From: a virus
Virus record (IMG/VR): IMGVR_UViG_3300018877_000002
Strand: one strand, 5' to 3'
Length of the DNA stretch: 64,000 bases
Under the pieces are notes generated by a model. The model made no database searches, was not told where the DNA came from, and worked only from the letters and a program-made list of their open reading frames with translations. Below, one piece after another: positions 2 through 61,060 of the stretch (position 1 is its first letter; the number at the start of each line of letters is the position of its first letter). The translations under genes and the position numbers were made by a program.

Positions 2-205
2 GAACATGAGAATGATGTTCATGATGATCTTTATGCGACTTTGTTTTTAGCAACATCTATTAAAATTGCTAACATCAATCGTTTACGACAAATGATTGAT
101 GAAGCCATAGACAATGGTGACGAAAAAGCATTCATGAAATTATCTGCCGAACTTCAACAGCTTGAAGAGCAGGATGTTAACATGTGTGATTCTAACTATT
201 CATAA
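2..205 (+). CDS. 3-prime fragment of an ORF entering from upstream, IDEAL-motif-like C-terminus
   Basis: Frame 2 is open from the window edge to TAA at 203-205. Translation ends RLRQMIDEAIDNGDEKAFMKLSAELQQLEEQ. A terminator follows. Confidence 0.4.
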   Translation, partial: EHENDVHDDLYATLFLATSIKIANINRLRQMIDEAIDNGDEKAFMKLSAELQQLEEQDVNMCDSNYS

Positions 206-222
206 TATTCACTCGGGCAAAA

Positions 223-253
223 ATGGTAGGAGATAAGTCCTACCATTTTTTTA
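223..253 (+). terminator. rho-independent terminator
   Basis: Stem ATGGTAGGA / TCCTACCAT with a 6-nt loop, followed by a T7 run. Confidence 0.75.
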
Positions 254-265
254 TCTTCTGATGTA

Positions 266-294
266 TTGACAAATCCTCTAATTATTGCTAGACT
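266..294 (+). promoter_or_regulatory. sigma-A-type promoter of the first operon
   Basis: TTGACA, a 17-nt spacer AATCCTCTAATTATTGC, then TAGACT, 20 nt upstream of the MazG-like start. Confidence 0.55.
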
Positions 295-314
295 GTAGTT
301 AGAGGTGATACATT

Positions 315-878
315 ATGACGGTAAAGTCTTCCGTTACACTTGGGCAGATTCAGGAATATGTAAAAGAGGTTGAAGTAACAAAAAAATGGGATAAGCAAAT
401 TGGCTCTTTTGGTGGGCTTCTTCTGGTGGAAGAACTGACCGAAATTCAAGAGGCAATGGAGCTTCACTCCAATCTGAGCCAACGCATTGGTCGCGTAGCA
501 AAAGCAATTCGCAATCAGGAAGTCGGTCGCTTTGGTCATGACGAGATCAATAATAGCGATCAACAAAAACTTGAAGCTATTGGCGATGAATGTGCTGATG
601 TGCTTTTCGCTATTGTTAAGGTAGCTAACTACTATGGTCTTGACCTTGCAACTCATTATCATAGATTGCAATACAAAATTAAGGATAGATTTCCTGAATT
701 AAAAGAAAAAGATATGAAAGTCATTTTACTACAATGTGGAAATGTCAATGTTGTGAATTGTGTTTCTTGCAACAAAACTCACGTTGGCATTCCTTCTTTG
801 ATCGAAAACCGCGCTGATAAGGTTGGGTGGTTTGTATGTCCCGTCACTGGAAATAAAATTCTCATACCAAAGGATTGA
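315..878 (+). CDS. mazG: MazG-like nucleoside triphosphate pyrophosphohydrolase with Cys-rich C-terminal tail
   Basis: VEELTEIQEAM and IGDECADVLFAIVKVANYYGLDL match the paired EExxE / ExxD helices of all-alpha MazG NTP-PPases. The C-terminal 50 aa carry 4 Cys. Confidence 0.7.
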   Translation: MTVKSSVTLGQIQEYVKEVEVTKKWDKQIGSFGGLLLVEELTEIQEAMELHSNLSQRIGRVAKAIRNQEVGRFGHDEINNSDQQKLEAIGDECADVLFAIVKVANYYGLDLATHYHRLQYKIKDRFPELKEKDMKVILLQCGNVNVVNCVSCNKTHVGIPSLIENRADKVGWFVCPVTGNKILIPKD

Positions 879-939
879 TAAAACAGGAGTTCCAGTACGC
901 AACGCAGTTCTCGAAGCTAACGATAAACTTTAAAGGGAG

Positions 940-2454
940 ATGTCAAAAATGAAAACAATCTTTGAAATGATGCGTAAGCGCCAAAATAAAATTCTTCGTG
1001 TTGATGCCTATGGGTTTTCTCATAACATGTTGAAGATTGACACGTCTTTCGAGGTGTCGCACATGTACAATCGTCGCAGACCACAAATCCTCTTCTTATT
1101 TTCGCATTATGTCGCTGAGGCGTTTGGTACGCCTATCACGATGGAAGATGTTGATGAGGCGCACGAAATCGCAAAAGAAATGGGATTGGTCTTTCCGCGT
1201 CATATTTTTGAACGTGTTGTAAATGAATTCAAAGGGTATTTTCCTATCAAGGTAGAGGCGTTGCCTGATGGTTTCTATTGCCCTGTAGGTACACCCTTCT
1301 GTCAAATCTCTAATGTAGCTAAGGATTTTGATGATCTAAATGCATTCATTGCATGTCTTGGACACGCAGGTTTTGGTGAACTTGTCTCTTGGGATGAGGC
1401 ATATCTGATGAAAGCTTACTTTCCTGCCGCCGCCGCTACTCACGCATTCGAGATGAGGGAATATCTCGAACAACAATGCAAAGAACATGGGTACGATTGG
1501 GAGCAATTTAAGTGGCGTTTCCATTCTTTTGGCTATCGCGGACATGCTTCTGAGCAAAACGCGGCACTCGCTGGATTGGCTTGGAATATGTCTCTGTTCG
1601 GAACTGATGACATCCACACAAAACAATATTATCGTAAAGCTCCTGTTGGCTCTGTGGCGGCTTCTGCACACAAGGTTGTCCAGCAGTTCGATGATGAACT
1701 ACAGTCCTTCCTGTATGGTGTAGATGCTGTTGCAGAGGCGTTCCATCAGCGCGGTGAAGGTTCTCCCATCTTCCCTTTCCCTATCGACACATACAACGCG
1801 AATAATGTGATTCAAAATTACATTCCTGTTGTTGCGAAGTATGCGGCTGAAAAAGATGTTCGAATTACGCCTCGCCCTGATAGCGGCAATGTCATTCAAC
1901 AAGCAATCGACATCTATCATGTTGCGCAAGAGCATGGTCTGACTAATGTGAGTGTAATCATTGGCGAAGGAATGTCCTTTGAACAAGTCAAAAAGTATGA
2001 TGCTATCTTGCTCGAAAACAACGTTCCTTTGAACTTTGTGCTGTATGGCATTGGGGCAGGATTTTACACTCATCTTACTCGCGACTATTTGGGATGGGCG
2101 ATGAAAACTTCATTCTCTAACAAAGATAGCCGTATGAAGTTTTCTGAAGTTCCTATTAAACAATCAATTCCAGGAATTGTCAAGCTGTTTATTGACGAAG
2201 AGATGAACATGGTCGTTGATTATAGCAACGATGGAAAGTATGCTGGCGCTATCAATGCTGATAATGGATTGTATAATATCCTCTATCATTTTGATGGCTC
2301 TACAGACAAGCCCTTTGTCAAGGTCTTCACCATCGAAGAAAATCATATGCAGATCGAATCTCAGCGTGAAGCACGTGTAGCTGACACCATTGTCATTGCT
2401 CCTGCAATCAAGGAAGAGATTAAGCGCATTCGCGCATTACATGGGCTGTCCTAA
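940..2454 (+). CDS. nadV: nicotinamide phosphoribosyltransferase (NAMPT/NadV)
   Basis: 504 aa. HSFGYRGHAS, RPDSGNV and IIGEGMS are type II phosphoribosyltransferase/NAMPT motifs. The length is typical of NadV. Confidence 0.85.
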   Translation: MSKMKTIFEMMRKRQNKILRVDAYGFSHNMLKIDTSFEVSHMYNRRRPQILFLFSHYVAEAFGTPITMEDVDEAHEIAKEMGLVFPRHIFERVVNEFKGYFPIKVEALPDGFYCPVGTPFCQISNVAKDFDDLNAFIACLGHAGFGELVSWDEAYLMKAYFPAAAATHAFEMREYLEQQCKEHGYDWEQFKWRFHSFGYRGHASEQNAALAGLAWNMSLFGTDDIHTKQYYRKAPVGSVAASAHKVVQQFDDELQSFLYGVDAVAEAFHQRGEGSPIFPFPIDTYNANNVIQNYIPVVAKYAAEKDVRITPRPDSGNVIQQAIDIYHVAQEHGLTNVSVIIGEGMSFEQVKKYDAILLENNVPLNFVLYGIGAGFYTHLTRDYLGWAMKTSFSNKDSRMKFSEVPIKQSIPGIVKLFIDEEMNMVVDYSNDGKYAGAINADNGLYNILYHFDGSTDKPFVKVFTIEENHMQIESQREARVADTIVIAPAIKEEIKRIRALHGLS

Positions 2455-2556
2455 TATACCCATTTATGTTTAAACTCACTCCTGAACTTTTAAAAAGGCT
2501 CAGGAGTGGGGCAAATGCAAAGATCACCTATAGGATTTTGCCAAGGAGGGAAGGTA

Positions 2557-3180
2557 ATGGAAAAACAATTTAAAGCTGGCTTCATGGTTGGACGCTTCCA
2601 GCATATCCATAAAGGGCATCAGGAAATCATTGAGCGCGGCATCAATTCGTGCGAAAAGTTTGTGGTATTTGTAGGCTCCTCTCAGGAGAGTGAAACACGA
2701 CAAAACCCTTACAGTGCCGCTGAGCGCATTAAGCTTATCAAGAAGATTTATGGCGACCTTGTTGAAGTTATCCCATTGCCTGACATCACGACCCCTGATG
2801 ACATCAGCGAAGCATGGGGTAAATACGTAATGGAACAGGCGACAATGGCTCTTGGTGAACATCCTGACTACATGGTCACTGGTAGCGGTGACAGTCAAAG
2901 CCTATGGTTTACTGAAGATCAGTTGACCTTCCAAAAAGGCAGAGATATGGCAAGAATGTATTTTGACATCGTACCGCGAAGCAACACGCCCATCAGCGCA
3001 ACTGAAATGCGCCATTATCTGCTGACAGATAACTTCCAATCGTGGAAGCAGTTTGCAGACATTCGTATCCATTGCAAATTTGAGTGGCTTCGCCTGTTGC
3101 TTCTTATAGTCGAGTATCACAATTTGAGAAGAAAGCTTATCGTCAAAGACGAAAGTGAACTTGATGATGCTAATTTCTAA
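2557..3180 (+). CDS. nicotinamide-nucleotide adenylyltransferase (NMNAT, NadM/NadR-type)
   Basis: GRFQHIHKGH matches the (H/T)xGH nucleotidyltransferase motif and ISATEMR matches the ISxTxxR motif. Start moved to the ATG at 2557, behind AAGGAGGG. No Nudix box seen. Confidence 0.8.
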   Translation: MEKQFKAGFMVGRFQHIHKGHQEIIERGINSCEKFVVFVGSSQESETRQNPYSAAERIKLIKKIYGDLVEVIPLPDITTPDDISEAWGKYVMEQATMALGEHPDYMVTGSGDSQSLWFTEDQLTFQKGRDMARMYFDIVPRSNTPISATEMRHYLLTDNFQSWKQFADIRIHCKFEWLRLLLLIVEYHNLRRKLIVKDESELDDANF

Positions 3181-3204
3181 CTCATAGGAGGGTTATATAC
3201 AACA

Positions 3205-4122
3205 ATGGAACAAAAAGCATATATGGACATCGTTCGCCTTGGACACAAAACCACGCAAGGGATTCTGAACGATGGCGACCACATCGTGGTTCAAGAAAAG
3301 CTGGATGGCGCAAATGCATCCTTTTGTCTGAACCCTGCGAATGGCGACCTTGCGGTATTCTCTCGCCGCACAAAACTTGATGAGAGCAACACTCTTGGAG
3401 GCTTTTATGGATGGGTAATGGACAATATCGCTGGCAAAGTCCTTCGCCCTAACACGATCTACTTTGGCGAATGGCTGAATCCCCACAAGGTCAAATACCC
3501 TGAGAAGACATTCTACCTGTTTGACCTGTACGATGTAAGCACTCATCGTTACCTTCCCTTCGAAGAAGTCAGGAATGAGGCTCAGAGACTGCATCTGAAT
3601 TTGATTCCTGTTTTCTACGAGGGAGTATACCAAGGTTATGCTCATCTGGAGCAGTTCGTCGGCAAGACACTGATTGGCGGCAAGCTTGGCGAAGTGGAGC
3701 AGGGTGAAGGAATCGTTGTCAAAAATGTAACTTTCATCAACCAATTTGGCAGACAGATGTTTGTCAAAATGGTCACTGAGGCTTTTGCTGAGGTGCAAAA
3801 ACAAAAGTTGCCAAAAGACCCTAATAAACCAAAGAGCAAAGAACGTTTATTCGTAGACACTTACGTTACCAAGGCACGTGTTGAGAAGTTCCTGCACAAA
3901 CTTGTTGATGAGCAGGTATTGGATGCTCAATGGGGTATTGAAGATATGGGTGTCGTTCTCAAAGAGCTAAACCATCGTATTTATGATGATCTTATAAAAG
4001 AAGAAGCCGACTATCTGCCGAGTGTATACGACACCAGAGAGCTTCGCAAAAGCCTTAGCACAGTTATGCCAAATTTTGTCAAAGAAATTATCAAGGAGAG
4101 ACAAAAAGATGAAAATTGTTGA
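3205..4122 (+). CDS. ATP-dependent RNA ligase family protein
   Basis: Covalent nucleotidyltransferase motifs: I VQEKLDGAN, III YFGEW, IIIa FYLFDLY, IV EGIVVKN, V FVKMV. The KLDGxN form is typical of RNA ligases. Confidence 0.7.
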   Translation: MEQKAYMDIVRLGHKTTQGILNDGDHIVVQEKLDGANASFCLNPANGDLAVFSRRTKLDESNTLGGFYGWVMDNIAGKVLRPNTIYFGEWLNPHKVKYPEKTFYLFDLYDVSTHRYLPFEEVRNEAQRLHLNLIPVFYEGVYQGYAHLEQFVGKTLIGGKLGEVEQGEGIVVKNVTFINQFGRQMFVKMVTEAFAEVQKQKLPKDPNKPKSKERLFVDTYVTKARVEKFLHKLVDEQVLDAQWGIEDMGVVLKELNHRIYDDLIKEEADYLPSVYDTRELRKSLSTVMPNFVKEIIKERQKDENC

Positions 4123-4381
4123 TAAACGCGTAAACAATAAAAGGGCGAATTTCGGCTCCTTTGTTGTCCTAGACGATGAATCCTATCTATTCGTTACTAA
4201 CTACTCTTCCTTTGAAAAAGCTTATCCTGTCAAACTGTTCTCTATAGATTCTGGATTATTCGTAGAGGGTGTCGGTTCCCTTGATGAGCTTTACATTGGA
4301 AGGTGTATTGGCGACCACTTAATAAAAGATATTATAACATCGAGCGAAGCAACTCTTGTTATTGGGGAGGAGGGCGTTTAG
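4109..4381 (+). CDS. hypothetical protein
   Basis: ATG at 4109 behind AAGGAGAG. Overlaps the ligase stop. No recognisable motif. Confidence 0.5.
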   Translation: MKIVDKRVNNKRANFGSFVVLDDESYLFVTNYSSFEKAYPVKLFSIDSGLFVEGVGSLDELYIGRCIGDHLIKDIITSSEATLVIGEEGV

Positions 4382-4435
4382 CCCTCTCTTTCTCCAAAAG
4401 GTAAATGTATAAACTAAGGAGGTTGGAGAACATAA

Positions 4436-4864
4436 ATGAAAGAAATAATACAAGATTTGTTCTCTGTTGATGATTCTTATTTTTTAGCTCATTGTATTTC
4501 AGCAGATGCCCGCATGGGTGCGGGGATTGCAGTTGAATTTGTTAAACGTTTCCCTCAAATTACACGTCTACGTAATGATTGGCAGACCTATAATGCTGTG
4601 GGCACATGTCGAAAAATAGGAAGAGTATTTAATCTTATCACTAAATATAGAGCTTGGGATAAACCAACCTATGGAACTCTTACTCGCTCCTTGGAGGATA
4701 TGAAACTGAAAGCGATTGAGAAGGGTGTTGCGAAAATTGCGATGCCACGAATTGGCTGTGGTCTAGATGGTTTACAATGGCACATAGTGAGAAATGTTAT
4801 TGAAGATGTTTTTGACGACACTGAAATTGAAATACTTATTTGCAAACCAGAACAAGGGAGATGA
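4436..4864 (+). CDS. macro domain protein (ADP-ribose binding/hydrolase fold)
   Basis: FLAHCISADARMGAGIAVEF and IAMPRIGCGLDGLQW match Poa1p-like macro domains. Confidence 0.8.
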   Translation: MKEIIQDLFSVDDSYFLAHCISADARMGAGIAVEFVKRFPQITRLRNDWQTYNAVGTCRKIGRVFNLITKYRAWDKPTYGTLTRSLEDMKLKAIEKGVAKIAMPRIGCGLDGLQWHIVRNVIEDVFDDTEIEILICKPEQGR

Positions 4865-4868
4865 TACA

Positions 4869-5585
4869 ATGAGTGAATTTGAAAGAAATATCATTATCAG
4901 CGATCAGATTACACCTCAGTTGGCAGGTGATATTATTAAACGTATTCAAGATATCAATATCTTTGATTCTCAAGAAGAGGATGAAGTAGAAGCGAAACGT
5001 TCTATCTTGGCTGAACAGATTAAATCACGTACAACAGGCTCTGATGAAGAAGTGTATTCACTTGTGGATTTAATACTCCCTCCTTATCAACGCGAACCGA
5101 TAATTATTACCGTTAATTCCATTGGAGGCAATGCATACGATGGCTTTGCAATTATTGGTGCTATGGAGATGAGTGAGACTCCCATTTACACTGTTTGCAC
5201 TGGTTCCGCTATGAGTATGGCTCTATTGCTCTTTGTAGCTGGCGATGTGCGCTTTGCTCATAGAATGGCTACGTTCATGTATCACGACTCTAGCTGGGGC
5301 GGTGGAGGCACTAACACGCAAATGCAACGTCATATAAAGGAAATTGAGCGTTTAAATAAAGTATATGATAATTACTTGCTAGAGAATACTTCACTCCCAC
5401 AAGAGTTGCTTGACGATGTTCGCGGCAAGGTTGACAATCTATTTTTTGATGCTTATCAAGCGCAAGAGTATGGTGTTGCTGATGTTGTACTTCCAGATGA
5501 TAACACAGTAAATATCAAAGTAATTGCAGAGCAATTACTTGCAGAAGCCGAGGGGAGCGAAAAGAATGAAAAAAATGCTCTCTAG
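4869..5585 (+). CDS. clpP: ClpP-family serine protease
   Basis: ITVNSIGGNAYDGFAIIGAM and TGSAMSMALLLFVAGD (the ClpP Ser motif), then MYHDSSWG. Start at the ATG at 4869, behind AAGGGAG. Confidence 0.8.
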   Translation: MSEFERNIIISDQITPQLAGDIIKRIQDINIFDSQEEDEVEAKRSILAEQIKSRTTGSDEEVYSLVDLILPPYQREPIIITVNSIGGNAYDGFAIIGAMEMSETPIYTVCTGSAMSMALLLFVAGDVRFAHRMATFMYHDSSWGGGGTNTQMQRHIKEIERLNKVYDNYLLENTSLPQELLDDVRGKVDNLFFDAYQAQEYGVADVVLPDDNTVNIKVIAEQLLAEAEGSEKNEKNAL

Positions 5586-5669
5586 GTATGGACTCACTTA
5601 TCCTTTACCTCTTCTATTCAAAAAGTAACTTTTCGTGGAGAGAAACATCTGCTATATGCTAATTTGAGC

Positions 5670-5698
5670 TTGACAAAATAGAAGATTGATGTTAAAAT
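5670..5698 (+). promoter_or_regulatory. sigma-A-type promoter
   Basis: TTGACA, 17 nt, TAAAAT. Confidence 0.6.
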
Positions 5699-7964: not shown

Positions 7965-10900
7965 GTGATTATTCTGTCTAAGATTGATGAAAAACGTTAC
8001 GAGAATCAAATAAGCATAATGAAGCTCGTTAAGAGCAATCGTGAATGGCTATCTAAGACTAATTACGATATGCAACAATTTGATTCTAAGTTTAGCGAGT
8101 TAACCTCCATCTTCCGCGAGGTAATAACTGCTGAGGACGAAGAGATAGAGGAAACTATTTCTAAAAAATTAAAGGAAATGGCTAAGGATTACCTTGCTTC
8201 TATCCATCCCTACAGAAGATTCTCCAGTCTTCACAATCATACCAACCGAAGTTTACTGGATGCTATTGGTACGCCAGAGCAGATTGTGCAACAAGCTTAT
8301 GAGTTAGGGTTTAATGCTGTCGCTCTTACTGAGCATGGCAACATGTTCTCTATGATTGATGGTTACAAGAAGGCGAAGGAATTGGGTATTAAGTACATAT
8401 TCGGCTGTGAAATTTACGAATGTGACGATATGTACGATAAACGCCCTGAAGTGCTTTATGATAGATACCACTTGATTTTGCTTGCGAAGAACAAAACTGG
8501 TGTAGAAAATCTATTTAAAATCGTTACAGCAGGACAAACTGACGGCTTCTATGGTAAGCCGCGTGTTGATAGAAGGTTCCTTGCAGAACATTCTGAGGGG
8601 CTTGTCTGTTTGTCCGCTTGTTTAGCAAGTAGAATCTCACGCTTGCTAGTTAACGACAGATGCCCTTGTTGCCACGATAAGCCAGAAGAAGGCGGCGATT
8701 GTGTAAGCTTTGAACCTGATTGGGAGCAAGCTAAAAAGGAAGTTGAGATTTACAAGAGTATTTTTGGTGATGATTTTTATATTGAACTTCAAAATCATAG
8801 AAGCGATGCACAGCATCGTTCCAATAAAAGAAATCTGAAGCTGGCTCTTGAAACTAATACGGAATTTACCATTACATTTGACTCCCATATGTTGAACGAG
8901 AGCCAAATGAAGATGCATTCCACATTCGTTAAAATGGGGCAAGATAGAGAAGCGGGCGAAACTTATCTTGACTGTTGGCAGACAGACATTGATGGTATTC
9001 ACGCTATCATGGATGCACAAATTGGGCGTGAATACGTGCTACAAGCAATCGCCACCTCTGATAAAATTTCTGCCGAAGTCAACTTTGAGTACGAATTGCA
9101 TCAAGACCTTATGCCACACGTCAAAATTCCTTCCACTTTTAAGGACGACAGGCAATACTTGAAACACCTCATCAATGAGGGTTGCAAGAAGCGTGGTATT
9201 GACAAGCTTCCCGCTGACATTCGCAAGGTATGCTATGATCGTCTAAGATATGAATTTGAAGTTCTAGACTATTTGGACTACTGTTCATATTTCATCATGC
9301 TCAATCAGCTTGTGACAAAACTCAGAGAGCGTGAGGTTCCGCTTGGATATTCACGTGGCTCTGGCGGTAACTCTTACACTCTTTATGTGATTGGCGTTAC
9401 TGAGGTTGATTCGATCAAGTGGGATTTGGACTTCTCACGCTTCGGCAATAAAGGGCGTAAAGGTTCACCTGCTGACTATGATATGGACGTATCACAGCTT
9501 CGTAGAGGGGAGGCTATTGAGGTTGCGGCTGAATTGTTTGGCGAAGAAAACATTTGTCAGCTTGCAACCTTTAACTCTCTGACTCCTAAAGTTGCATTTA
9601 AGGATTTAGCAAAAGTATTCCATGCAGAGGGAGTCTATAACATTCCGTACAAAAAAGCAGAGGCTATTTCTAAGCTGATACCTGACGACCCTAGTAAAAA
9701 AATCCCTATTGCAGAAGCGCTAGAAATCAGCCCTCAGCTTGCGGCATACAAAGAGCAGTATCCTTTGATATTCGAGTACATTGAACAACTTCAATACGCC
9801 CCTAAGAGTGTTGGTTGTCATGCGGCGGCTGTTATCATTGCACCAAGACCTGTCGTAGAGTTCGCTCCATTGATGTACAACGAAAAAGGTAATATCATGA
9901 TGCAACTAGAGATGGGCAATGCAATGGATGACATTGGCTTGGTTAAAATGGACTTCCTTGGACTCGTCACTGTCGATGTTGTAGACTATACGCTAAAATT
10001 TGCTGGTCTAACATGGAAGGATATTGACCTCGCAACAATGGATTTGGATGACAAGGCTGTCTTCTCTGAGATTTATGGCAAAGGCAGAACGCTTGGTATT
10101 TTCCAAATGGAATCTAAAGTTGCACAAGAGATGTTCCGCAATATGCAACCTGATAACATTAACGACATTTTTGCTGTTAATGCCTTGAATCGTCCAGCTA
10201 TTCTTAATGTTGGTATGGATAAAATTTACATTCAAAATAAGCATGACAAAAATAAGATAAGGTATGCTCATCCTGATCTGGAGGAGCCATTCGCTCCAAC
10301 CTATGGTGTTATGTTATATCAAGAACAGGCACTAAAGGTATTCTCTATAGCTGGTTTTCCAGAGGATGAAACTGACCAAGCAAGACGTGCTATAGGCAAG
10401 AAAAAGCCGAAAGTCATGGCAAAGTTGTATGCTCAATTCAAAAGTGGTTTGGCAAAGCGTAATTGGACTGAGGAGGCTGTCAAAGAAATCTGGGATTTGA
10501 TTAAAGCTCAGGCTGACTATTCCTTTAACAAAGGTCACTCCACTGCCTATGGCTTGCTGTCATACGTCACAGCGTGGCTAAAATACTACTATCCAGTAGA
10601 GTTTATGTGCGCACTGTTGATATCTGAAATTGGCAACTATGAACAAATCACCAAGTATATCGACGAATGTAAAAAAATGGAGATTCCAGTACTTCCTCCT
10701 GATATCAATAAGTCTGAACGACATTTTTCTATCGTTGATGGCAAAATTCTGTTTGGACTTGAAGCGATTAAAGGTGTTGGAGCTAAGGCGACTGATCTGA
10801 TTCTCTTTGTCCGTGAGTCAATTGGAAGATTCGATAACCTTGAGCATTTCTATCACATTATGGAGGGAATCAATGATAACATTAATTTTCTCCAAAGGTT

Positions 10901-11645
10901 TAATTCGCGCAATGCTCCACTTGAAGCTATTAGTGCTGAGCTAGAAGAAGGTATACAGAAGATCAAGAAAATTGATTCTGGTACGATGATAGCTCTCATT
11001 AAGAGTGGTGCATTTGGCTCTAATATTGATGAAATTCTTATGGAATTTGCCCATCTTCAATTTCCAAAAAGACAATATAAGCCTGTGGTGGGACTTCCTA
11101 CTAAGAAAGTTTGCTTTGAAACTGGTCTTGCTACTTCTGAAGAAGAATGGAAGAAACATAAAGATGTAATTCTGGCACGTTACAACGCCAGAAGGGAGGA
11201 GGCGTTCATAGCAGAGCAAAATGAGCGCTTAGCCAAGCATCTTGAAGAGTTTGAAAGCAAATACATGGCAACGCCCGAAATGTATGAGTTTCAAACTTTG
11301 TCGATTTTCCTTAGTGGAAGTCCATTTGACCATGTGATGGAACGCTTTAAGGATTTTGACTTAGTTGACGATGGAGAGCCAATTACGATTGCTGGTACGA
11401 TTGCCACTCTTCAACGCAAGAAGAGTAAAAAGAAAGACGGCAAGCAATATGCTAGGCTTTCAATCCTGACTGTCAAAAATGGTGTCATCGAAGGCATTTG
11501 TTTCAATAAGCAGTATGTGATGTATCAGGATTTATTAGTCAAAGGCAATAACGTTGTTATTCTTGCCGAAAAAGATGGTGATGGCTTTAAAGTTAATAAG
11601 ATGAAGTCTTATGATGTCTGGAAGGCCGAAAAAGGCATCAAGTAA
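7965..11645 (+). CDS. dnaE: DNA polymerase III alpha subunit (DnaE-type, PHP domain)
   Basis: PHP motif LHNHTNRSLLDA...ALTEHGNMF. Palm motifs GYSRGSGGNSYTLYVIGVTEVD and PADYDMDVS. 1226 aa. Confidence 0.9.
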   Translation: MIILSKIDEKRYENQISIMKLVKSNREWLSKTNYDMQQFDSKFSELTSIFREVITAEDEEIEETISKKLKEMAKDYLASIHPYRRFSSLHNHTNRSLLDAIGTPEQIVQQAYELGFNAVALTEHGNMFSMIDGYKKAKELGIKYIFGCEIYECDDMYDKRPEVLYDRYHLILLAKNKTGVENLFKIVTAGQTDGFYGKPRVDRRFLAEHSEGLVCLSACLASRISRLLVNDRCPCCHDKPEEGGDCVSFEPDWEQAKKEVEIYKSIFGDDFYIELQNHRSDAQHRSNKRNLKLALETNTEFTITFDSHMLNESQMKMHSTFVKMGQDREAGETYLDCWQTDIDGIHAIMDAQIGREYVLQAIATSDKISAEVNFEYELHQDLMPHVKIPSTFKDDRQYLKHLINEGCKKRGIDKLPADIRKVCYDRLRYEFEVLDYLDYCSYFIMLNQLVTKLREREVPLGYSRGSGGNSYTLYVIGVTEVDSIKWDLDFSRFGNKGRKGSPADYDMDVSQLRRGEAIEVAAELFGEENICQLATFNSLTPKVAFKDLAKVFHAEGVYNIPYKKAEAISKLIPDDPSKKIPIAEALEISPQLAAYKEQYPLIFEYIEQLQYAPKSVGCHAAAVIIAPRPVVEFAPLMYNEKGNIMMQLEMGNAMDDIGLVKMDFLGLVTVDVVDYTLKFAGLTWKDIDLATMDLDDKAVFSEIYGKGRTLGIFQMESKVAQEMFRNMQPDNINDIFAVNALNRPAILNVGMDKIYIQNKHDKNKIRYAHPDLEEPFAPTYGVMLYQEQALKVFSIAGFPEDETDQARRAIGKKKPKVMAKLYAQFKSGLAKRNWTEEAVKEIWDLIKAQADYSFNKGHSTAYGLLSYVTAWLKYYYPVEFMCALLISEIGNYEQITKYIDECKKMEIPVLPPDINKSERHFSIVDGKILFGLEAIKGVGAKATDLILFVRESIGRFDNLEHFYHIMEGINDNINFLQRFNSRNAPLEAISAELEEGIQKIKKIDSGTMIALIKSGAFGSNIDEILMEFAHLQFPKRQYKPVVGLPTKKVCFETGLATSEEEWKKHKDVILARYNARREEAFIAEQNERLAKHLEEFESKYMATPEMYEFQTLSIFLSGSPFDHVMERFKDFDLVDDGEPITIAGTIATLQRKKSKKKDGKQYARLSILTVKNGVIEGICFNKQYVMYQDLLVKGNNVVILAEKDGDGFKVNKMKSYDVWKAEKGIK

Positions 11646-14456: not shown

Positions 14457-14912
14457 ATGGACATCAAGAGTGGTTGCGGATACCCCTTATCTGCGCTGTC
14501 TAACTTTGCTCCACATCCGTTTGAGATTGATGGAGTTGAGTGTTACAGCATGGAAGGGTTCTTGCAAAGTTTGAAGTTTAAAAACATCGACATGCAAGAA
14601 CACGTCTGCAAACTTGTTGGTATTAAAGCCAAGATGAAGGGTAAGAACAAAACTTGGTGGAAGGAGCAGAAACTTTATTGGAGAGGTCAGGAAATTGACA
14701 GACACAGCCAAGAGTATCAGGATTTACTAAACAGAGCATACTTGGCTCTTGCGAAAAACATTGGTTTCCGCAAAGCTCTATTGGCAACTGGCAATGGTGT
14801 GTTGAAACATTCAATAGGGAAAAAAGATGCGCACCAAACAATCTTGACTCAGAAAGAGTTTTGTTCACGTCTTATGTGGATTCGCGATCTTTTGCAAAGG
14901 GGTGAGATATAA
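14457..14912 (+). CDS. NADAR (YbiA/DUF1768) family protein
   Basis: LSALSNFAPHPFEIDGVECYSMEGFLQSLKF matches the NADAR signature LSNF.P.PF..DG..Y.S.E...Q..KF. Confidence 0.75.
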   Translation: MDIKSGCGYPLSALSNFAPHPFEIDGVECYSMEGFLQSLKFKNIDMQEHVCKLVGIKAKMKGKNKTWWKEQKLYWRGQEIDRHSQEYQDLLNRAYLALAKNIGFRKALLATGNGVLKHSIGKKDAHQTILTQKEFCSRLMWIRDLLQRGEI

Positions 14913-45645: not shown

Positions 45646-46929
45646 TTAATTACCTTCTAAAAGATGTGCCCAAGCAGGTTCCCCTGTCTTAGACTTGACA
45701 TTAAAGTCAATCTTTAGCTTGTTAGGTTCACTTTTGTCATTCTTGCTAAAGTTTGTCGCCGCAACCTTTTTTCCAACAAGAGCAAATAGTTGAACTTCAA
45801 TTTCTTCAATTGTCATCTCAGAAGCGGCTTCTTTTACAGAAGCCATCTCTTCAATGGTAAGCTGTTTCTCAAATTTAGAAAAGACAGCATCCTCAGAGGC
45901 TTTACGCTCCTCAGTAATTTTACTTGCTTTAAACTCACGAAGCTCTTTAACTTCATTTTCAAGACTTGTGAATTTTTCTTGAATTTGTTCTTTTTCGGAT
46001 TTTACAGCTTCAAACTGAGTTGTCACTTCCTCTAGCTTACTATTAGCATCTCTTGTGGTAGCCTCTAGTGCCGTAAACTGCTCTTTTGCTGTATTCAACT
46101 CTGTCTCTAAGTTAGAGTATTTCTCTGCTGAAAATTCAGCAAGTTTAACAAGGAGGTCTTCTACAGAAATTTCTTCAAAATTTACCCCTCTTGCTTCGAT
46201 CTCCTCTTTAGAGGTAGAGAACAGCTTGATTAGATTTTCCTTATTCACTGTACCTATTCCTCCTTTATCTAAGATAATATCTGAACGACTATGAAAGGCT
46301 AAGTTAAATTCATCAACTTTTCTCTTAAAAGTTTCCCAATCAACATAAGTAAATTTTAAGGCTATATTAGCGTCATACATCGCTGGGTTAACATCAAATC
46401 CCAAGGCGCAAGCGCCATTAAATTTAAATTTAGAGAAATGAAACAATTTAGTTTCATCATTCCAGTAGCCTTCATAGTCGCTTGATAATTCCATGCTTTG
46501 AGATTTCACTAAGTCCCTATTAAATATATTAGTAGAATCTTCAAATTTAGTCCAAAGCAATCCATCTACAACAAGGTATTCTCTTTCAACGCCATCAGAA
46601 CCTGTTCTTACTTCGAACCTAGCATTATTATTCTCAGGAATAACACCGTAAGCAGAGCCTAGATATTTTAAAGTCCATTCACCATCAACTTTTTCTAAGC
46701 CTACTCTATGATCCGAAAAGTCTTCTTGGTGTTGAGAGTTTGGCTCAATATAACCAAGGATTGGAGTGTTTGCTAGAGTTGGCAATGCTTTAAGTACAAC
46801 CTCTTTTGAGAAAAAAGAGCCATTGTAGTTTTCTCCAAGATGCATCAATGTGATAGTAACTTTTAGAAATCTTTCATCCAATTGCTCTGTAACCTCAAAA
46901 TTAACAGGGATTTTAGTAGCTACATCCAT
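45646..46929 (-). CDS. prohead protease (XkdF-like) fused to a coiled-coil scaffold region
   Basis: Positioned after the portal gene. The N-terminal 200 aa are globular. The C-terminal region is E/K-rich coiled coil. Confidence 0.5.
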   Translation of the reverse strand: MDVATKIPVNFEVTEQLDERFLKVTITLMHLGENYNGSFFSKEVVLKALPTLANTPILGYIEPNSQHQEDFSDHRVGLEKVDGEWTLKYLGSAYGVIPENNNARFEVRTGSDGVEREYLVVDGLLWTKFEDSTNIFNRDLVKSQSMELSSDYEGYWNDETKLFHFSKFKFNGACALGFDVNPAMYDANIALKFTYVDWETFKRKVDEFNLAFHSRSDIILDKGGIGTVNKENLIKLFSTSKEEIEARGVNFEEISVEDLLVKLAEFSAEKYSNLETELNTAKEQFTALEATTRDANSKLEEVTTQFEAVKSEKEQIQEKFTSLENEVKELREFKASKITEERKASEDAVFSKFEKQLTIEEMASVKEAASEMTIEEIEVQLFALVGKKVAATNFSKNDKSEPNKLKIDFNVKSKTGEPAWAHLLEGN

Positions 46930-51233: not shown

Positions 51234-51309
51234 TGGTGCTGGAGACAAGACTTGAACTCGCAACCTTTCGCTTACAAGGCGACTGCACTGCCAATTGTGC
51301 TACTCCAGC
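51234..51309 (-). tRNA. tRNA-Thr (UGU)
   Basis: Hand fold: acceptor GCTGGAG/CTCCAGC, A73, encoded CCA. Anticodon loop CTTGTAA. Confidence 0.75.
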
Positions 51310-51312
51310 ATA

Positions 51313-51401
51313 TGGTATGGGCAGTAGGATTCGAACCTACGAGGGCTTGCGCCACTTGCGTCCAAAGCAAGACCGCTACCAAGCTACGGAACTATACCCA
51401 T
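51313..51401 (-). tRNA. atypical 89-nt tRNA with a long variable arm; anticodon loop TTTGGAC (UGG)
   Basis: T arm GTAGG-TTCGAAT-CCTAC. Acceptor ATGGGTA/TGCCCAT. Variable arm GGC-GCAA-GCC. Five nt lie between the acceptor and D stem instead of 2. Confidence 0.55.
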
Positions 51402-51402
51402 A

Positions 51403-51478
51403 TGGTTGCGCGAGGTTGGAATCGAACCAACTATTTCCTGATAATGAGTCAGGCGACTTACCATTTGTCCTCTCCGCA
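51403..51478 (-). tRNA. tRNA-Met/Ile2-type (CAU) with a bulged acceptor stem
   Basis: Anticodon arm CCTGA-CTCATTA-TCAGG. T arm GTTGG-TTCGATT-CCAAC. Acceptor TGCGGAG pairs with CTC(G)CGCA only if one G is bulged. Confidence 0.6.
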
Positions 51479-51673
51479 ATAATTAACTAGGCACAGCAAT
51501 TTAAAAGTGTGAAGCAAACAACATTCATCAATGTAAGTTAATAATTTTATCCTTTAGATAATTGTAGGTTGCTGTATGTGCCTAAATTCTAGACGCGCCA
51601 ATCATTTTAATATTAATCACCAATTATTTGAATAGCGTAAGATTTATGATTTGCTGTAAGCGTCTAAAAAGGT

Positions 51674-51751
51674 TGGTGGGCGATAGGAGAGTCGAACTCC
51701 TAAAACTCGCGGTCTAAACGCGATACGTATGCCAAATTCCGTCAACCGCCC
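51674..51751 (-). tRNA. class I (short variable arm) tRNA with anticodon UAG
   Basis: Acceptor GGGCGGT/ATCGCCC, A73, CCA. Anticodon arm TCGCG-TTTAGAC-CGCGA. Variable region is only GTTTT. Confidence 0.6.
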
Positions 51752-52269
51752 TTGTTATTTTTTCCTGCATAGGTATCAGTTTGACTATGACAATTAGGAC
51801 ATAAAAACCTAAGATTCTCAAGTCTATTATCATTATTGATTCCATTTGCATGATCTAACTGTAAAGACAATGGCTTTCCATTCCATTCTCCAGTATTACC
51901 GCAATCGTTGCATTTGTAATCCATAACTCCCTCTGATACGAGTCTCTTTTTAAGAGTAGCAATATTAACATACGATGAATTTTCTATGAGAATTTCCTCT
52001 AGAGTGTATCTGATATTATTAGATACAGATTTTTTCTTATTTGCATTAAAATGGGAAATGTCAATTCCATCTTCTTCAATTCGCTTCTTGAAACAATCTC
52101 TCGTATGTTTAGCTCTAGGATTGGTATAGCCAATATTTCTGATAGCATCTGTTATAGAGAAGCTACTTTTCACTATCTCTCTTAATTCATCAGTTGAAAT
52201 TGAGAGTATAATTGATTTATTTGCTATATTATCACATCCTTCGGATTTTGGGGTGATGCAGGGAATCAA
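51742..52269 (-). CDS. HNH homing endonuclease nested in the tRNA array
   Basis: CNDCGNTGEW...LQLDHANGINNDNRLENLRFLCPNCH is an HNH motif. The start is uncertain because the TTG at 52269 lies inside the T loop of tRNA-His. Confidence 0.75.
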   Translation of the reverse strand: MIPCITPKSEGCDNIANKSIILSISTDELREIVKSSFSITDAIRNIGYTNPRAKHTRDCFKKRIEEDGIDISHFNANKKKSVSNNIRYTLEEILIENSSYVNIATLKKRLVSEGVMDYKCNDCGNTGEWNGKPLSLQLDHANGINNDNRLENLRFLCPNCHSQTDTYAGKNNKGG

Positions 52270-52322
52270 ACCCTAGTCTTCTGATTCACAGTCAGACGTG
52301 TTATCACTACACCATCATCACC
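52251..52322 (-). tRNA. tRNA-His (GUG), CCA not encoded
   Basis: Acceptor GGTGATG/CATCACC, C73. Anticodon arm TCTGA-CTGTGAA-TCAGA. No encoded G-1. Confidence 0.75.
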
Positions 52323-52327
52323 ATACT

Positions 52328-52402
52328 TGGCAACAGGTCAGAGAATCGAACTCTGTCTACAGGGGTCAAAGTCCTGTGTGCTTGCCTTTACACTAACCTG
52401 CA
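52328..52402 (-). tRNA. tRNA-Gln (UUG)
   Basis: U1 start, G73, CCA. Anticodon loop CTTTGAC. T arm CAGAG-TTCGATT-CTCTG. Confidence 0.7.
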
Positions 52403-52513
52403 ATATGGGAGTTTTGCTACAATGTAGCCTTTTGAATGACTTAAACTCCAAAAGCCATTGTGTCATTTGTTTTTTTAAAAGGTTCTCTTAACGACAGCTA
52501 AATTCTCCTTTTT

Positions 52514-52590
52514 TGGTGACGTGTAAGGGGTTCGAACCCTTGAATAGTAGATAGAAAGTCTACTGGCTTAGACCACTTGCCGAACACGCC
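52514..52590 (-). tRNA. tRNA-Glu (UUC)
   Basis: Acceptor GGCGTGT/ACACGTC. Anticodon arm GTAGA-CTTTCTA-TCTAC. Confidence 0.7.
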
Positions 52591-52593
52591 ATA

Positions 52594-52669
52594 TGGCTAC
52601 AGGAGCGGGATTCGAACCCACGACCACGTGATTAACAGTCACGCGCTCTACCTGCTGAGCTACCCTGTA
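52594..52669 (-). tRNA. tRNA-Asn (GUU)
   Basis: Canonical cloverleaf. D arm GCTC-AGCAGGTA-GAGC. Anticodon loop CTGTTAA. G73, CCA. Confidence 0.85.
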
Positions 52670-52733
52670 ATGTTGAGGCTATTTACACTTCTATCTAGCT
52701 AATGCGCACTCGCTGTATGATGTAAATAGCTTT

Positions 52734-52808
52734 TGGTGGTTCCTAATGGATTCGAACCATTGACCGCACGATTATCAGTCGTGTACTCTACCTCTGAGTT
52801 AAAGAACC
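52734..52808 (-). tRNA. tRNA-Ile (GAU)
   Basis: Canonical cloverleaf. Anticodon arm CACGA-CTGATAA-TCGTG. Confidence 0.85.
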
Positions 52809-52810
52809 AT

Positions 52811-52884
52811 TGGCGGCTTATACGAGGCTCGAACTCGTTACTCTCGCGTGACAGGCGAGTATGTTACCCATATACCAATAAGCC
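52811..52884 (-). tRNA. tRNA-Asp (GUC)
   Basis: Acceptor GGCTTAT/ATAAGCC, G73. Anticodon arm CTCGC-CTGTCAC-GCGAG. Confidence 0.85.
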
Positions 52885-52908
52885 ATTATTTGTTAACCTC
52901 TTGACTAT

Positions 52909-52937
52909 ATATTACCATATCTCGGTCTAATTGTCAA
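52909..52937 (-). promoter_or_regulatory. internal sigma-A promoter of the tRNA array (P2)
   Basis: Minus strand reads TTGACA, 17 nt, TAATAT. Confidence 0.6.
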
Positions 52938-52965
52938 CATGTTAACTAAAATTTTTCGAGATTTG

Positions 52966-53040
52966 TGGTGGCTCCCATTGGTAACGATCCAATCTCCTTC
53001 GCTTTTCAGGCGAATGCTAATCCATCTCAGCTAGAGAGCC
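52966..53040 (-). tRNA. tRNA-Phe (GAA) with a non-canonical T loop
   Basis: Anticodon arm TTCGC-CTGAAAA-GCGAA. The T loop is ATCGTTA instead of TTCGAAT. Confidence 0.75.
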
Positions 53041-53044
53041 ATAA

Positions 53045-53117
53045 ACCACATTGATGGAATCGAACCATCAGCTAGAGCTACCATCGACTTTTGCTCTGTT
53101 GCCTGAGCCAGATGTGG
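53045..53117 (-). pseudogene. tRNA-like element / probable pseudo-tRNA
   Basis: Good acceptor (CCACATC/AATGTGG), D arm (GCTC-AGGCAACA-GAGC) and T arm (GATGG-TTCGATT-CCATC). No anticodon stem can be paired. No CCA. Confidence 0.45.
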
Positions 53118-53121
53118 TTAT

Positions 53122-53197
53122 TGGTGGAGCGTAGCGGACTCGAACCGCTCACCTTTGCAGTGCAAATGCAACGTTCTACCAGATGAACTAACGCCCC
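53122..53197 (-). tRNA. tRNA-Ala (UGC)
   Basis: Canonical cloverleaf with the G3:U70 pair. Anticodon arm TTGCA-TTTGCAC-TGCAA. Confidence 0.85.
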
Positions 53198-53275
53198 ATT
53201 TATCAGTGTCAGGTGGGAGGATGCTAAACACCATGTCCCTCACTTCGAGTATTTGACACTGAGTATGGTTGAGCA

Positions 53276-53350
53276 TGGTTGAGCATGAGGGAATTGAACC
53301 CCCGCCTCCAACTTGTAAGGATGGCGTACTCCCATTATACAGAATGCTCA
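53276..53350 (-). tRNA. tRNA-Val (UAC)
   Basis: Acceptor TGAGCAT/ATGCTCA. Anticodon loop CTTACAA. One T:T mismatch in the anticodon stem. Confidence 0.65.
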
Positions 53351-53355
53351 ATAAT

Positions 53356-53440
53356 TGGTGGGTGAGGAGGGATTCGAACCCCCTAAGCCTAAGCAATGGA
53401 TTTACAGTCCACCGTAACTCGCCATCGTTACCGCTCACCC
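53356..53440 (-). tRNA. tRNA-Tyr (GUA), class II
   Basis: Acceptor GGGTGAG/CTCACCC. Anticodon arm GTGGA-CTGTAAA-TCCAT. Long variable arm. Confidence 0.85.
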
Positions 53441-53799: not shown

Positions 53800-53988
53800 C
53801 TATTCTATCGAATCTGGCTCAGTATCTTCTCCAATAGAGATCGAAATTGTTGAGCCATTCAATGATGCAAGGACTTCTCTCAGGTTGTATACACCTTTAA
53901 CGTTCCCATCTTTATCGTACTCAGTGATGGTTTCTGTTGCATCATCGTATTCACCTTTGAACGCCCATTTCTGACTATATTTAGCCAT
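53800..53988 (-). CDS. hypothetical protein
   Basis: Open frame. Confidence 0.45.
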   Translation of the reverse strand: MAKYSQKWAFKGEYDDATETITEYDKDGNVKGVYNLREVLASLNGSTISISIGEDTEPDSIE

Positions 53989-55375: not shown

Positions 55376-55699
55376 TTATTCAGCGTCTTCGGTAGAACCA
55401 GAAATTTCGCCAGTTTCAGCCGCACGCTTCAGTTTTGCTTTTGCGGAAGCTTTAACCTTAATCTTTTCAGGTACATTGACAGACTCGCCAGTCTTAGGAT
55501 TGCGACCAACATATGCTTCTACTACTTTCAACTCAGTAGCAAGATAGCCATTTAGGTTAACTTCCTTACGTTGTGCAGTTAGATGCTCTAGAGTCAGAAG
55601 AAACGCATCCACAGCCTCACCAGCCGCCTTCTTTGTCATTCCATTCAGTTCTGCCATTGCCGCGATAAAATCCTTTTTGTTTGCTTTAATAAATTCCAT
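55376..55699 (-). CDS. hup: HU/IHF-family DNA-binding protein
   Basis: FIAAMAE...GRNPKTGESVNVPEKIKVK matches the HU arm (R.GRNP.TGE.I.I....V.F). Confidence 0.85.
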   Translation of the reverse strand: MEFIKANKKDFIAAMAELNGMTKKAAGEAVDAFLLTLEHLTAQRKEVNLNGYLATELKVVEAYVGRNPKTGESVNVPEKIKVKASAKAKLKRAAETGEISGSTEDAE

Positions 55700-59613: not shown

Positions 59614-59652
59614 GTAAACTCCTCCTCCTTGCGTTCCAATATCGCTTATTCT

Positions 59653-59681
59653 ACTATACCAATAATTAGAGGAATAGTCAA
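59653..59681 (-). promoter_or_regulatory. sigma-A-type promoter of the helicase operon
   Basis: Minus strand reads TTGACT, spacer ATTCCTCTAATTATTGG, TATAGT. The spacer is 15/17 identical to the promoter spacer at 266-294. Confidence 0.6.
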
Positions 59682-59711
59682 GATGAATAAAAATTTTTCC
59701 TTGGAGGATGT

Positions 59712-61051: not shown

Positions 61052-61060
61052 CCTTTAATT
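61031..61060. terminator. bidirectional terminator at convergent gene ends
   Basis: AAGGCTAGCC / GGTTAGCCTT stem flanked by A4 and T-rich tracts. Overlaps both stop codons. Confidence 0.6.

Follow-up and report, generated by a model that had tools for sequence, protein, structure and literature searches.

A seven-gene row with predicted NAD+ rebuilding and ADP-ribose removal and a ClpP-like peptidase in a phage most likely infecting Bacilli: coordinated counter-defence or mosaic?

When phage genes of several kinds that are linked to the evasion of host immunity stand side by side in one row, do they act together, or is the row merely where such genes have come to lie? The question is raised by seven closely packed genes at positions 266-5585 of a 64,000-nt stretch of viral DNA (IMG/VR record IMGVR_UViG_3300018877_000002), the whole of which I will call the window. 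In order, they encode a MazG-like protein, a nicotinamide phosphoribosyltransferase (NAMPT), an adenylyltransferase (NMNAT) for nicotinamide mononucleotide (NMN), an RNA ligase, an orphan protein of 90 amino acids (orf90), a macrodomain protein and a ClpP-like peptidase. An original prediction, made from the sequence alone, took them to be a single operon that, with a NADAR gene at 14457, forms a multi-pronged island countering abortive-infection immunity. The answer I favor is that the row is probably a mosaic particular to this lineage, made up of accessory genes of known types that act independently of one another, set in the nucleotide-metabolism and replication arm of the genome and only partly concerned with counter-defence.

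The gene row and its linkage in relatives

The seven predicted open reading frames (ORFs) are all present on the plus strand and are closely packed, the intergenic gaps ranging from -14 to 102 nt. Their starts (315, 949, 2557, 3205, 4109, 4436 and 4869) were assigned from Shine-Dalgarno spacing and from gene calls made independently on metagenome contigs that are 99.8-100% identical to the first 12 kb of the window, and this refined three of them: NAMPT at 949 (not 940), NMNAT at 2557 and ClpP at 4869. Each gene, the 90-residue ORF included, is preceded by a GGAGG-type ribosome-binding site, typical of Firmicutes, and the stop of the RNA ligase gene (3205..4122) overlaps the start of orf90 (4109..4381).

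Upstream of the row lies an intrinsic-terminator-like hairpin (219..250, plus strand), consisting of a 13-bp stem followed by a run of T. It folds at -18.3 kcal/mol (z = -4.88), none of 200 shuffles folds as well, and it is the predicted close of the upstream transcription unit. The terminator had been called earlier at 223-253, and the call holds with this small shift. A sigma-A-type promoter-like site follows at 266..294 (plus strand; TTGACA, a 17-nt spacer and a TG-extended TAGACT; 10/12 matches), and a second such site, also TG-extended and with 11/12 matches, is found at 5670..5698 (plus strand), 5' of the gene for RNase H. The two are among the top three promoter scores and occupy both intergenic gaps that bound the row; promoter-like sites as a class are not enriched (19 observed vs 16.5 +/- 3.6 expected from shuffles). 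No terminator-like structure is found between the ClpP gene and the 5670 promoter (5580-5680, z = +0.42), and therefore the 3' end of the operon is undefined. Of the bounds originally proposed for it, the upstream terminator and promoter are borne out, but a 3' boundary is not.

The row is part of something longer. The window belongs to a phage of about 158 kb that has been found repeatedly in metagenomes (Logan SRR5855429/432, JGI 3300018719/3300018875), and the sequence covered here amounts to 73 kb, i.e., the 64-kb window and 9 kb upstream of it, with about 85 kb of the genome outside. Upstream, on the same strand, are genes for ribonucleotide reductase (RNR), dUTPase, thioredoxin, a calcineurin-like phosphoesterase, ThyA, DHFR and a ReoY-like protein. 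Downstream are RNase H, small ORFs and the gene for PolIIIα (7965-11645). To speak of an island overstates how discrete the row is, since it sits within this long array running from RNR, dUTPase, ThyA and DHFR to RNase H and PolIIIα.

Conserved linkage of the seven genes in related phages had been set beforehand as one test of the original prediction, and the prediction largely fails it: the linkage found in the survey is that of NAMPT with NMNAT only. The survey took NAMPT, the RNA ligase and the macro gene as anchors and covered about 140 loci, in none of which the seven-gene combination recurs. Of the 19 viral loci anchored on NAMPT, 16 have NMNAT as the next gene downstream, two have a ClpP homologue no more than 10 kb away and one has an adjacent macro gene of another type; the RNA ligase, orf90 and the MazG-like gene are present in none. 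Four further NAMPT loci (L038-L041) have an NMNAT-type gene directly downstream in three cases; one of these three has a separate Nudix gene nearby, and in L038 the 199-residue gene downstream of NAMPT has no recorded family. The 80 metagenome loci anchored on the RNA ligase (39 of them at least 8 kb long) contain ClpP and NAMPT three times each, NMNAT once and a macro gene once (9 kb away), with orf90 and the MazG-like gene in none of the 80. Among 37 viral loci anchored on the macro gene, NAMPT, NMNAT, ClpP, NADAR and the RNA ligase are essentially absent, and several loci have PolIIIα close by. Linkage of macro and NAMPT was seen in 1/19 NAMPT-anchored and about 1/37 macro-anchored loci. 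Hypothetical or replication genes surround the RNA ligase and the TARG1-like macro gene in cultured phages. The NAMPT-NMNAT pair is the only conserved unit of the row, and the combination of seven is a one-off assortment of known gene types. It defines no new class, because it is not a conserved system.

Predicted NAD+ rebuilding and ADP-ribose removal

NAMPT (949..2454, plus strand) is of the NadV/Nampt type, scoring 46.5 bits against PF04095 (gathering cut-off 20.8), 163 bits against phrog_448 and 158 bits against PRK09198; the match to NAMPT_N falls slightly short (23.1 vs a cut-off of 25). Its 171 homologues, 40-50% identical to it, come from genomes of Paenibacillus and Brevibacillus and from contigs of 130-170 kb. 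The closest proteins, from Paenibacillus/Brevibacillus and uncultured phages, are 45-49% identical to it and the versions in cultured phages no more than 27%. Single-protein scans of IMG/VR with NAMPT gave no close match. NMNAT (2557..3180, plus strand) is a stand-alone NMN adenylyltransferase of the archaeal, NadM type, with the motif GRFQHIHKGH (GRFQxxHxGH) and matches to CTP_transf_like (46.3 bits), TIGR01527 (61.5 bits) and PDB entry 1f9a (E = 1.6e-12). Profile and PDB searches detected no Nudix domain in it.

By gene content, the predicted pair matches NARP2, a pathway defined as Nampt plus Nmnat and shown to rescue phages from Thoeris and other systems that deplete nicotinamide adenine dinucleotide (NAD+) (bioRxiv 10.1101/2024.02.11.579819). 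According to the same study, Nmnat is also present in 94% of the phages that carry Nampt, and NARP2 over-produces NAD+ even where there is no defence system. The NAD+-resynthesis part of the original prediction therefore fits a published and experimentally validated counter-defence pathway. NAMPT would combine nicotinamide with phosphoribosyl pyrophosphate (PRPP) to give NMN, NMNAT would adenylate NMN with ATP to give NAD+, and the pair would in this way refill an NAD+ pool emptied by TIR, SIR2 or SEFIR effectors.

Related phages appear to have their own version of such a module. Kirov, a Tsamsa-like phage, carries genes for a PRPP-synthetase-like protein and a nicotinate/nicotinamide phosphoribosyltransferase about 5 kb from its early ClpP gene, and by annotation this pair looks like NARP1. 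FADO, the model phage for NARP1 (bioRxiv 10.1101/2024.02.11.579819), also has a homologue of the window's ClpP. Because of the NARP1-like pair near ClpP in Kirov, and because FADO has both the ClpP homologue and NARP1, an NAD+-rebuilding module appears to be common in this arm of the genome in this kind of phage. Adps, a protein of this PRPP-synthetase-like type, is the NARP1 enzyme; a tblastn search with the Adps-like protein of Kirov found no match in the 73 kb covered.

The macro gene (4436..4864, plus strand) encodes an orphan macrodomain of 142 residues, of the TARG1/DarG type and predicted to be an ADP-ribosyl hydrolase. Its sole Pfam match is to PF01661 (25.5 bits), the general Macro family, and not to the Poa1p-type Macro_2. 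It is close to human TARG1/OARD1 (PDB 4j5r; E = 5.5e-33, about 47% identity) and matches the DarG macrodomain of Thermus aquaticus (PDB 5m31/5m3e) with E = 2.3e-5. Models of DarG align with it over their macro portions only, at 50.5 bits for NCBIfam (positions 26-150 of 338; cut-off 250) and 55.9 bits for PADLOC (27-147 of 329). Lys70, in an ITK motif, and Asp111, in a GCGLD motif, are equivalent to K84 and D125 of TARG1 and are invariant across the phage homologues and TARG1; Lys70 also corresponds to K80 of DarG.

The fold and the catalytic lysine are common to DarG and TARG1 (PMC5179494), TARG1 can undo DarT damage and is active on several types of ADP-ribose linkage (PMC9411070), and orphan phage macrodomains, called AdfM, counter DarTG2 (PMC13309987). 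The proposal that the macro protein removes ADP-ribose is strengthened by all this, as the protein is of the TARG1/DarG type, keeps the catalytic residues and is of the same kind as the anti-DarT2 factor AdfM. It would most likely strip ADP-ribose from thymine adducts made in DNA by DarT2-like toxins, or from other targets.

Two other identities for the macro protein were considered and dropped. A full-length DarG antitoxin is ruled out by the length of 142 residues, with no match to the C-terminal DarT-binding domain and no darT gene nearby. I also rejected an Adpp-type (Poa1p-like) phosphatase that feeds NAD+ rebuilding: no Adps gene was found in the 73 kb covered, the protein is TARG1-like, and NARP2 uses no ADP-ribose. 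A macro phosphatase joined to NARP1 does counter aRES (bioRxiv 10.64898/2026.01.28.702374). The logic of that arrangement, NARP1-AP, is not transferable here because, with a pathway that does not use ADP-ribose, a phosphatase acting on ADP-ribose-1''-phosphate would have nothing to feed. A different arrangement of macro and NAMPT was seen in a 244-kb IMG/VR contig (L033:9516-9956), where a macro gene lies directly upstream of NAMPT. Judged by eye, its protein seems to have other residues at the TARG1 catalytic Lys/Asp motifs and may be a different macro subtype.

The NADAR gene (14457..14912, plus strand), 9 kb downstream of the row in the same co-directional array, is just what it was said to be: its product is a homologue of T4 gp30.3 (AdfN) and scores 189 bits against PF08010. 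It is 60-65% identical to gp30.3 of KVP40-like Vibrio and of Klebsiella T4-like phages and 38-40% to that of T6, and its E33 and K40 align with E36 and K43 of T6 gp30.3, the catalytic Glu/Lys pair of AdfN. In the collection, 1,510 records carry a homologue, mostly those of T4-like phages of Gram-negative hosts. The high identity to the Vibrio and Klebsiella phage versions, despite the Firmicute-type phage that carries the gene, suggests a recent lateral transfer between very different phage lineages. The gp30.3 NADARs counter DarTG1 (PMC11825919), and phage NADAR genes have been noted beside NadV/NadM, as has MazG beside tRNA ligase genes (Iyer et al., PMC9503650). The window's NADAR would do for guanine adducts, or for other targets, what the macro protein would do for thymine.

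The other members of the row and the surrounding genome

The product of the RNA ligase gene (3205..4122, plus strand) is an ATP-dependent ligase of the PF09414 (Rnl2-like) family (88 bits; phrog_548, 218 bits). An alignment of four sequences shows no variation in KLDG of motif I, EGIVVK of motif IV or the lysine of FVKMV in motif V. The protein is 51-58% identical to ligases of Tsamsa-like phages, Brevibacillus phage Jenst and Bacillus phage B4, scores 28.5 against the NCBIfam Rnl2 equivalog (cut-off 197) and has no sequence match in PDB. The suggestion that it seals cuts made by anticodon nucleases fares poorly, as the 73 kb covered contain no kinase/phosphatase partner to heal the ends: the polynucleotide kinase (Pnk) and Rnl1-like proteins of phage Thrax2, used as queries, have no match in the window or in the upstream locus (L011), and concatenated Pfam scans of about 35 other window ORFs show no Pnkp, KptA, 2H phosphoesterase or sirtuin domain. 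In other Firmicute phages, the neighbours of the ligase homologues are genes of replication and recombination.

The first gene of the row (315..878, plus strand) encodes a divergent MazG-like, all-alpha pyrophosphohydrolase of nucleoside triphosphates, with 187 residues and a cysteine-rich, zinc-ribbon-like C-terminal tail. Its score against PF03819, 20.9 bits, narrowly misses the gathering cut-off of 22, but TIGR00444 (E = 6e-4) and the weak PDB matches, all of MazG type (5ie9, 2gta, 1vmg and 2q73), agree with one another, and the acidic metal-binding motifs EExxExxE and DExxD can be recognized by eye. The MazG assignment is tentative. A search of 5.8 billion proteins returned no homologue other than the protein itself, and a single-sequence AlphaFold2 model is unusable (predicted local distance difference test, pLDDT, of 38). 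The orphan orf90 (4109..4381, plus strand) has a good Shine-Dalgarno site and belongs to no family. Two protein searches, one by word index and the other by full HMMER, returned only the protein itself and borderline matches to Big_2 repeats, a faint similarity to an Ig-like fold that goes with an all-beta AlphaFold2 prediction of low confidence (pLDDT 43).

The last gene of the row (4869..5585, plus strand) encodes a ClpP-family (S14) serine peptidase of 238 residues that matches PF00574 with 86.5 bits, at model positions 45-179 only. Of the catalytic triad, Ser116 and His139 are invariant, and the region of the catalytic Asp is matched by an Asp. In an alignment with a hand-entered sequence of the B. 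subtilis protein, the window's protein lacks about the first 23 residues of cellular ClpP, which make up the axial loop or gate, and it has an insertion of about 30 charged, mostly acidic residues. It misses every NCBIfam cut-off for ClpP (74.8 vs 228). The N-terminal gate is needed for the coupling of ClpP to ClpX, ClpC or ClpA. With the gate absent and the curated cut-offs missed, a plain ATP-dependent ClpP of the cellular type was rejected.

Identity between the window's ClpP and the early ClpP found in Tsamsa-like Bacillus phages is 34-39%. In two of these, Kirov and Thrax2, the gene order is ThyA, a hypothetical gene, DHFR, ClpP and, further on, PolIIIα, and the window phage has seven extra genes between DHFR and ClpP, namely the ReoY-like gene and six of the row. 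Rather than a variable gene of an island, as first proposed, ClpP is therefore the positional equivalent of the early ClpP of those phages. A literature search found no published function for any phage-encoded early ClpP. Thrax2 (L036, record positions 74109-87412) encodes a pair of early ClpP paralogues within its replication arm. One has an Rnl1-like RNA ligase and a polynucleotide kinase to one side and a DNA ligase to the other, which makes this a second, independent instance of ClpP near nucleic-acid ligation genes.

Outside the operon, just before its terminator, lies the 3' end of a ReoY/YpiB-like gene (41..205, plus strand; UPF0302 and IDEAL, the latter at 44 bits), complete in the upstream locus (L011:8691-9257; UPF0302 78.7 bits, IDEAL 40.8 bits). 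In Bacilli, ReoY links ClpCP to MurA, is needed for the ClpCP-dependent degradation of MurA and binds both ClpC and ClpP (PMC7286690). The gate-less ClpP encoded 4.7 kb downstream, possibly with the ReoY-like protein, could conceivably be a device that hijacks or bypasses host ClpC-dependent proteolysis, perhaps with orf90 as a binder or inhibitor. It might take the form of an unregulated open-pore protease, or of a ClpCP re-targeted to destroy host or defence proteins. If true, this would be a protease-based host takeover or counter-defence so far undescribed for phages. I think it very unlikely, because the two genes do not occur together in other phages: ReoY-like genes are rare there, none of the 11 records found is Tsamsa-like, and none has a ClpP gene alongside.

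The late genes (large terminase, portal, capsid, tail and lysis) lie on the minus strand, as does a cluster of 14 transfer RNA (tRNA) genes. A megablast search with the region had no hit among 50,697 phage records. The portal-adjacent protein of 427 residues, the RNA ligase and the ClpP gene show distant ties to Tsamsa-like Bacillus, SPβ-like and Lactococcus 949-like phages, and the nearest NAMPT relatives are in Paenibacillus and Brevibacillus genomes; to judge from these similarities, the host is most likely a member of the Bacilli. The 427-residue protein (45646-46929, minus strand) directly follows the portal gene and has an N-terminal phrog_3313 domain and a coiled-coil tail. Its homologues are annotated as prohead protease in Thrax phages and as structural protein in Lactococcus 949-like phages, and it is probably a protease/scaffold fusion common to Tsamsa-, SPβ- and 949-like phages, with which this phage, by sequence comparison, has its head module in common.

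Several other features deserve mention. The tRNA cluster (51234-53440, minus strand) includes one gene (53044-53118) predicted to have a four-base anticodon and encloses an HNH-endonuclease-like ORF (51742-52269). An exonuclease V/Dda-like helicase (57379-59727) and a replication initiator of the nicking type (61035-61928) are the neighbours of a tyrosine-integrase-like ORF (59793-60827, plus strand; phrog_1, 95 bits). Two proteins encoded on the minus strand, a YonK-like protein of the SPβ family (53800-53988) and an HU-like DNA-binding protein (55376-55699; PF00216, 61 bits), are consistent with an SPβ/Tsamsa-type ancestry. A second contig of the same phage (L015) has at its left edge, upstream of the shared small ORFs, a PRA-PH gene of the MazG superfamily (59-721), where the equivalent position in L011 (3770-4426) has a dUTPase/dCD-like gene. 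Going by gene order alone, at a place where the contig ends, nucleotide-pyrophosphatase genes may have been swapped between strains.

Readings of the row and comparison with known systems

Gene content, families, catalytic motifs and the linkage of the genes, or its absence, can be read directly. From there I infer expression timing, the enzymatic activities and every counter-defence role. The row would be transcribed early or mid infection from a host sigma-A-type promoter, with the NARP2 pair, the macro protein and NADAR acting as described above and with the RNA ligase, the MazG-like protein, orf90 and ClpP as co-transcribed neighbours that would act independently. The multi-pronged counter-defence of the original prediction survives in NAMPT/NMNAT, the macro protein and NADAR, which are of known counter-defence kinds, but not in the RNA ligase, in ClpP or in conservation as a block. 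As these counter-defence readings rest on known kinds, the combination, thought at first to be undescribed, is new only as an assortment; its counter-defence components have been published (NARP2, AdfM, AdfN and the placement of NADAR by NadV/NadM, PMC9503650). If the activities hold, the phage would bring together in 15 kb three counter-defence strategies already published, namely NAD+ rebuilding and two de-ADP-ribosylases (macro and NADAR). Such a phage would be useful as a naturally occurring case of layered evasion among Firmicute phages and as a source of a NARP2 variant with stand-alone NMNAT and of a TARG1-like candidate AdfM for Bacillus.

Several considerations weigh against a mosaic of independent genes with a partial counter-defence role. 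Anti-defence islands are variable by nature, and so non-conservation does not disprove a joint use against defence. The tight spacing, the single strong promoter and the overlap of the ligase gene with orf90 would also fit a functionally coupled operon, and Adps, Pnkp or KptA could be encoded in the roughly 85 kb outside the sequence covered. NARP2 raises NAD+ without defence too, making a purely metabolic role possible. Finally, by its sequence the macro protein could act on DNA, RNA, protein or a small molecule, RNA ends and O-acyl-ADP-ribose among them.

How, then, do other explanations compare with the mosaic? All seven genes and NADAR might be one coordinated counter-defence operon, in which each gene undoes a different abortive-infection injury: loss of NAD+, ADP-ribosylation, cuts in tRNA, nucleotide signals and a further, unspecified one handled by ClpP or orf90. 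There is one promoter and the genes are closely packed, at least three of the eight are of validated counter-defence kinds (NARP2, the AdfM-like macro and AdfN), and other phages have NADAR by NadV/NadM and MazG by tRNA ligase genes (Iyer et al., PMC9503650). I nonetheless consider such coordination quite unlikely, given that the combination is absent from all of the about 140 related loci surveyed, that the RNA ligase has no end-healing partner within 73 kb and has its homologues among replication/recombination genes, that ClpP is conserved by position in this kind of phage while MazG is below threshold, and that the row runs without a terminator into RNase H and PolIIIα. This same setting, with the genes for RNR, dUTPase, thioredoxin, ThyA and DHFR directly upstream and those for RNase H and PolIIIα downstream, fits a row that extends the nucleotide-synthesis module and is not aimed at immunity. 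Additional NAD(P) would feed RNR/thioredoxin, ThyA/DHFR and an NAD+-dependent host ligase, MazG would clean the pool of deoxynucleoside triphosphates, and the macro protein would clear ADP-ribose by-products. Auxiliary metabolism of this sort agrees with the over-production of NAD+ by NARP2 in the absence of defence, but the same study shows NARP2 rescuing phages from Thoeris and other NAD+ depleters (bioRxiv 10.1101/2024.02.11.579819). Moreover, TARG1/DarG-type macros and AdfN-type NADARs have no known role in nucleotide synthesis, and their closest characterized relatives reverse ADP-ribosylation made by toxins (PMC5179494, PMC11825919, PMC13309987), all of which leaves a purely metabolic row fairly unlikely.

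Two further explanations concern parts of the row. The RNA ligase might work with the MazG-like and macro proteins and with the upstream calcineurin-like phosphoesterase to heal and seal tRNA or mRNA that has been cut. In that case the macro protein would process ADP-ribose-1''-phosphate or remove ADP-ribose from RNA ends, and NARP2 would supply the NAD+. Phage neighbourhoods with a tRNA ligase, MazG, a calcineurin-like phosphoesterase and an NAD+-using enzyme have been described (Iyer et al., PMC9503650), TARG1 removes ADP-ribose from phosphorylated nucleic-acid ends (PMC9411070), and the phage has a Metallophos gene 2.5 kb upstream and 14 tRNAs. This NAD+-linked RNA repair is nevertheless highly improbable. 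The scanned window ORFs hold no KptA/Tpt1, sirtuin, 2H phosphoesterase or polynucleotide kinase, the ligase is Rnl2-like and not a tRNA ligase of the T4 Rnl1 type, the macro protein is TARG1-like and not a Poa1p-type Macro_2, and ligase and macro genes are linked in one of 80 loci, where they lie 9 kb apart. The ClpP-like gene, for its part, might encode a prohead protease placed away from the head module. PHROG and RefSeq label its family as head maturation protease, a homologue in Alicyclobacillus phage MMB025 lies directly upstream of the large terminase gene, and the absence of the N-terminal gate would be typical of phage ClpP-like prohead proteases. However, the gene is about 40 kb from the portal, scaffold and capsid genes and on the opposite strand, and the phage has its own 427-residue protein after the portal, whose Tsamsa-like homologues were annotated as prohead protease by their depositors. 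The model for ClpP-related head maturation protease (NF045542) gives 59.7 against a cut-off of 120, and Thrax2 has its two such ClpPs among replication genes. A role in head maturation is accordingly unlikely.

With the mosaic as the preferred reading, each member of the row can be set beside the known system it most resembles. As in NARP2, whose prototype is NadV/NatV of Vibrio phage KVP40, a NadV-type NAMPT is directly followed by an NMN adenylyltransferase; unlike the prototype, the window's NMNAT is stand-alone, about 200 residues long, of archaeal type and with no Nudix domain detected, and its activity is predicted only. NARP1-AP (Adps, the macro phosphatase Adpp and Namat) likewise has a macrodomain gene in an operon with an NAD+ rebuilding pathway, but here that pathway is of the NARP2 type and makes no use of ADP-ribose, and the macro protein is TARG1-like rather than Poa1p-like and is encoded two genes away from NMNAT. 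With AdfM, DarG2 and TARG1 the macro protein has in common its subclass and the catalytic Lys and Asp, and with AdfM the lack of a toxin-binding domain. It is nearer to TARG1 than to bacterial DarG2, by the E values given above, and it differs from AdfM in coming from a presumably Firmicute-infecting, non-nucleus-forming phage, with DarT2-modified DNA only a predicted substrate. NADAR resembles AdfN in its membership of PF08010 and in keeping equivalents of the catalytic Glu and Lys, whereas the homologues of AdfN are mostly from T4-like phages of Gram-negative hosts and this one is in a Firmicute-type phage. The RNA ligase has the nucleotidyltransferase motifs of the PF09414 ligases of Herelleviridae and Tsamsa-like phages and of T4 Rnl2, but in the 73 kb covered no Pnkp partner was found for it such as occurs in the tRNA repair pair T4 Rnl1/Pnkp and the separate Rnl1-like and Pnk pair of Thrax2. 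The ClpP-like protein, lastly, has the truncated N-terminus of the early ClpP of Andregratiavirinae (Kirov, Thrax2 and FADO) and occupies the same slot between DHFR and PolIIIα, differing from the Tsamsa-like proteins by its extra charged insertion of about 30 residues.

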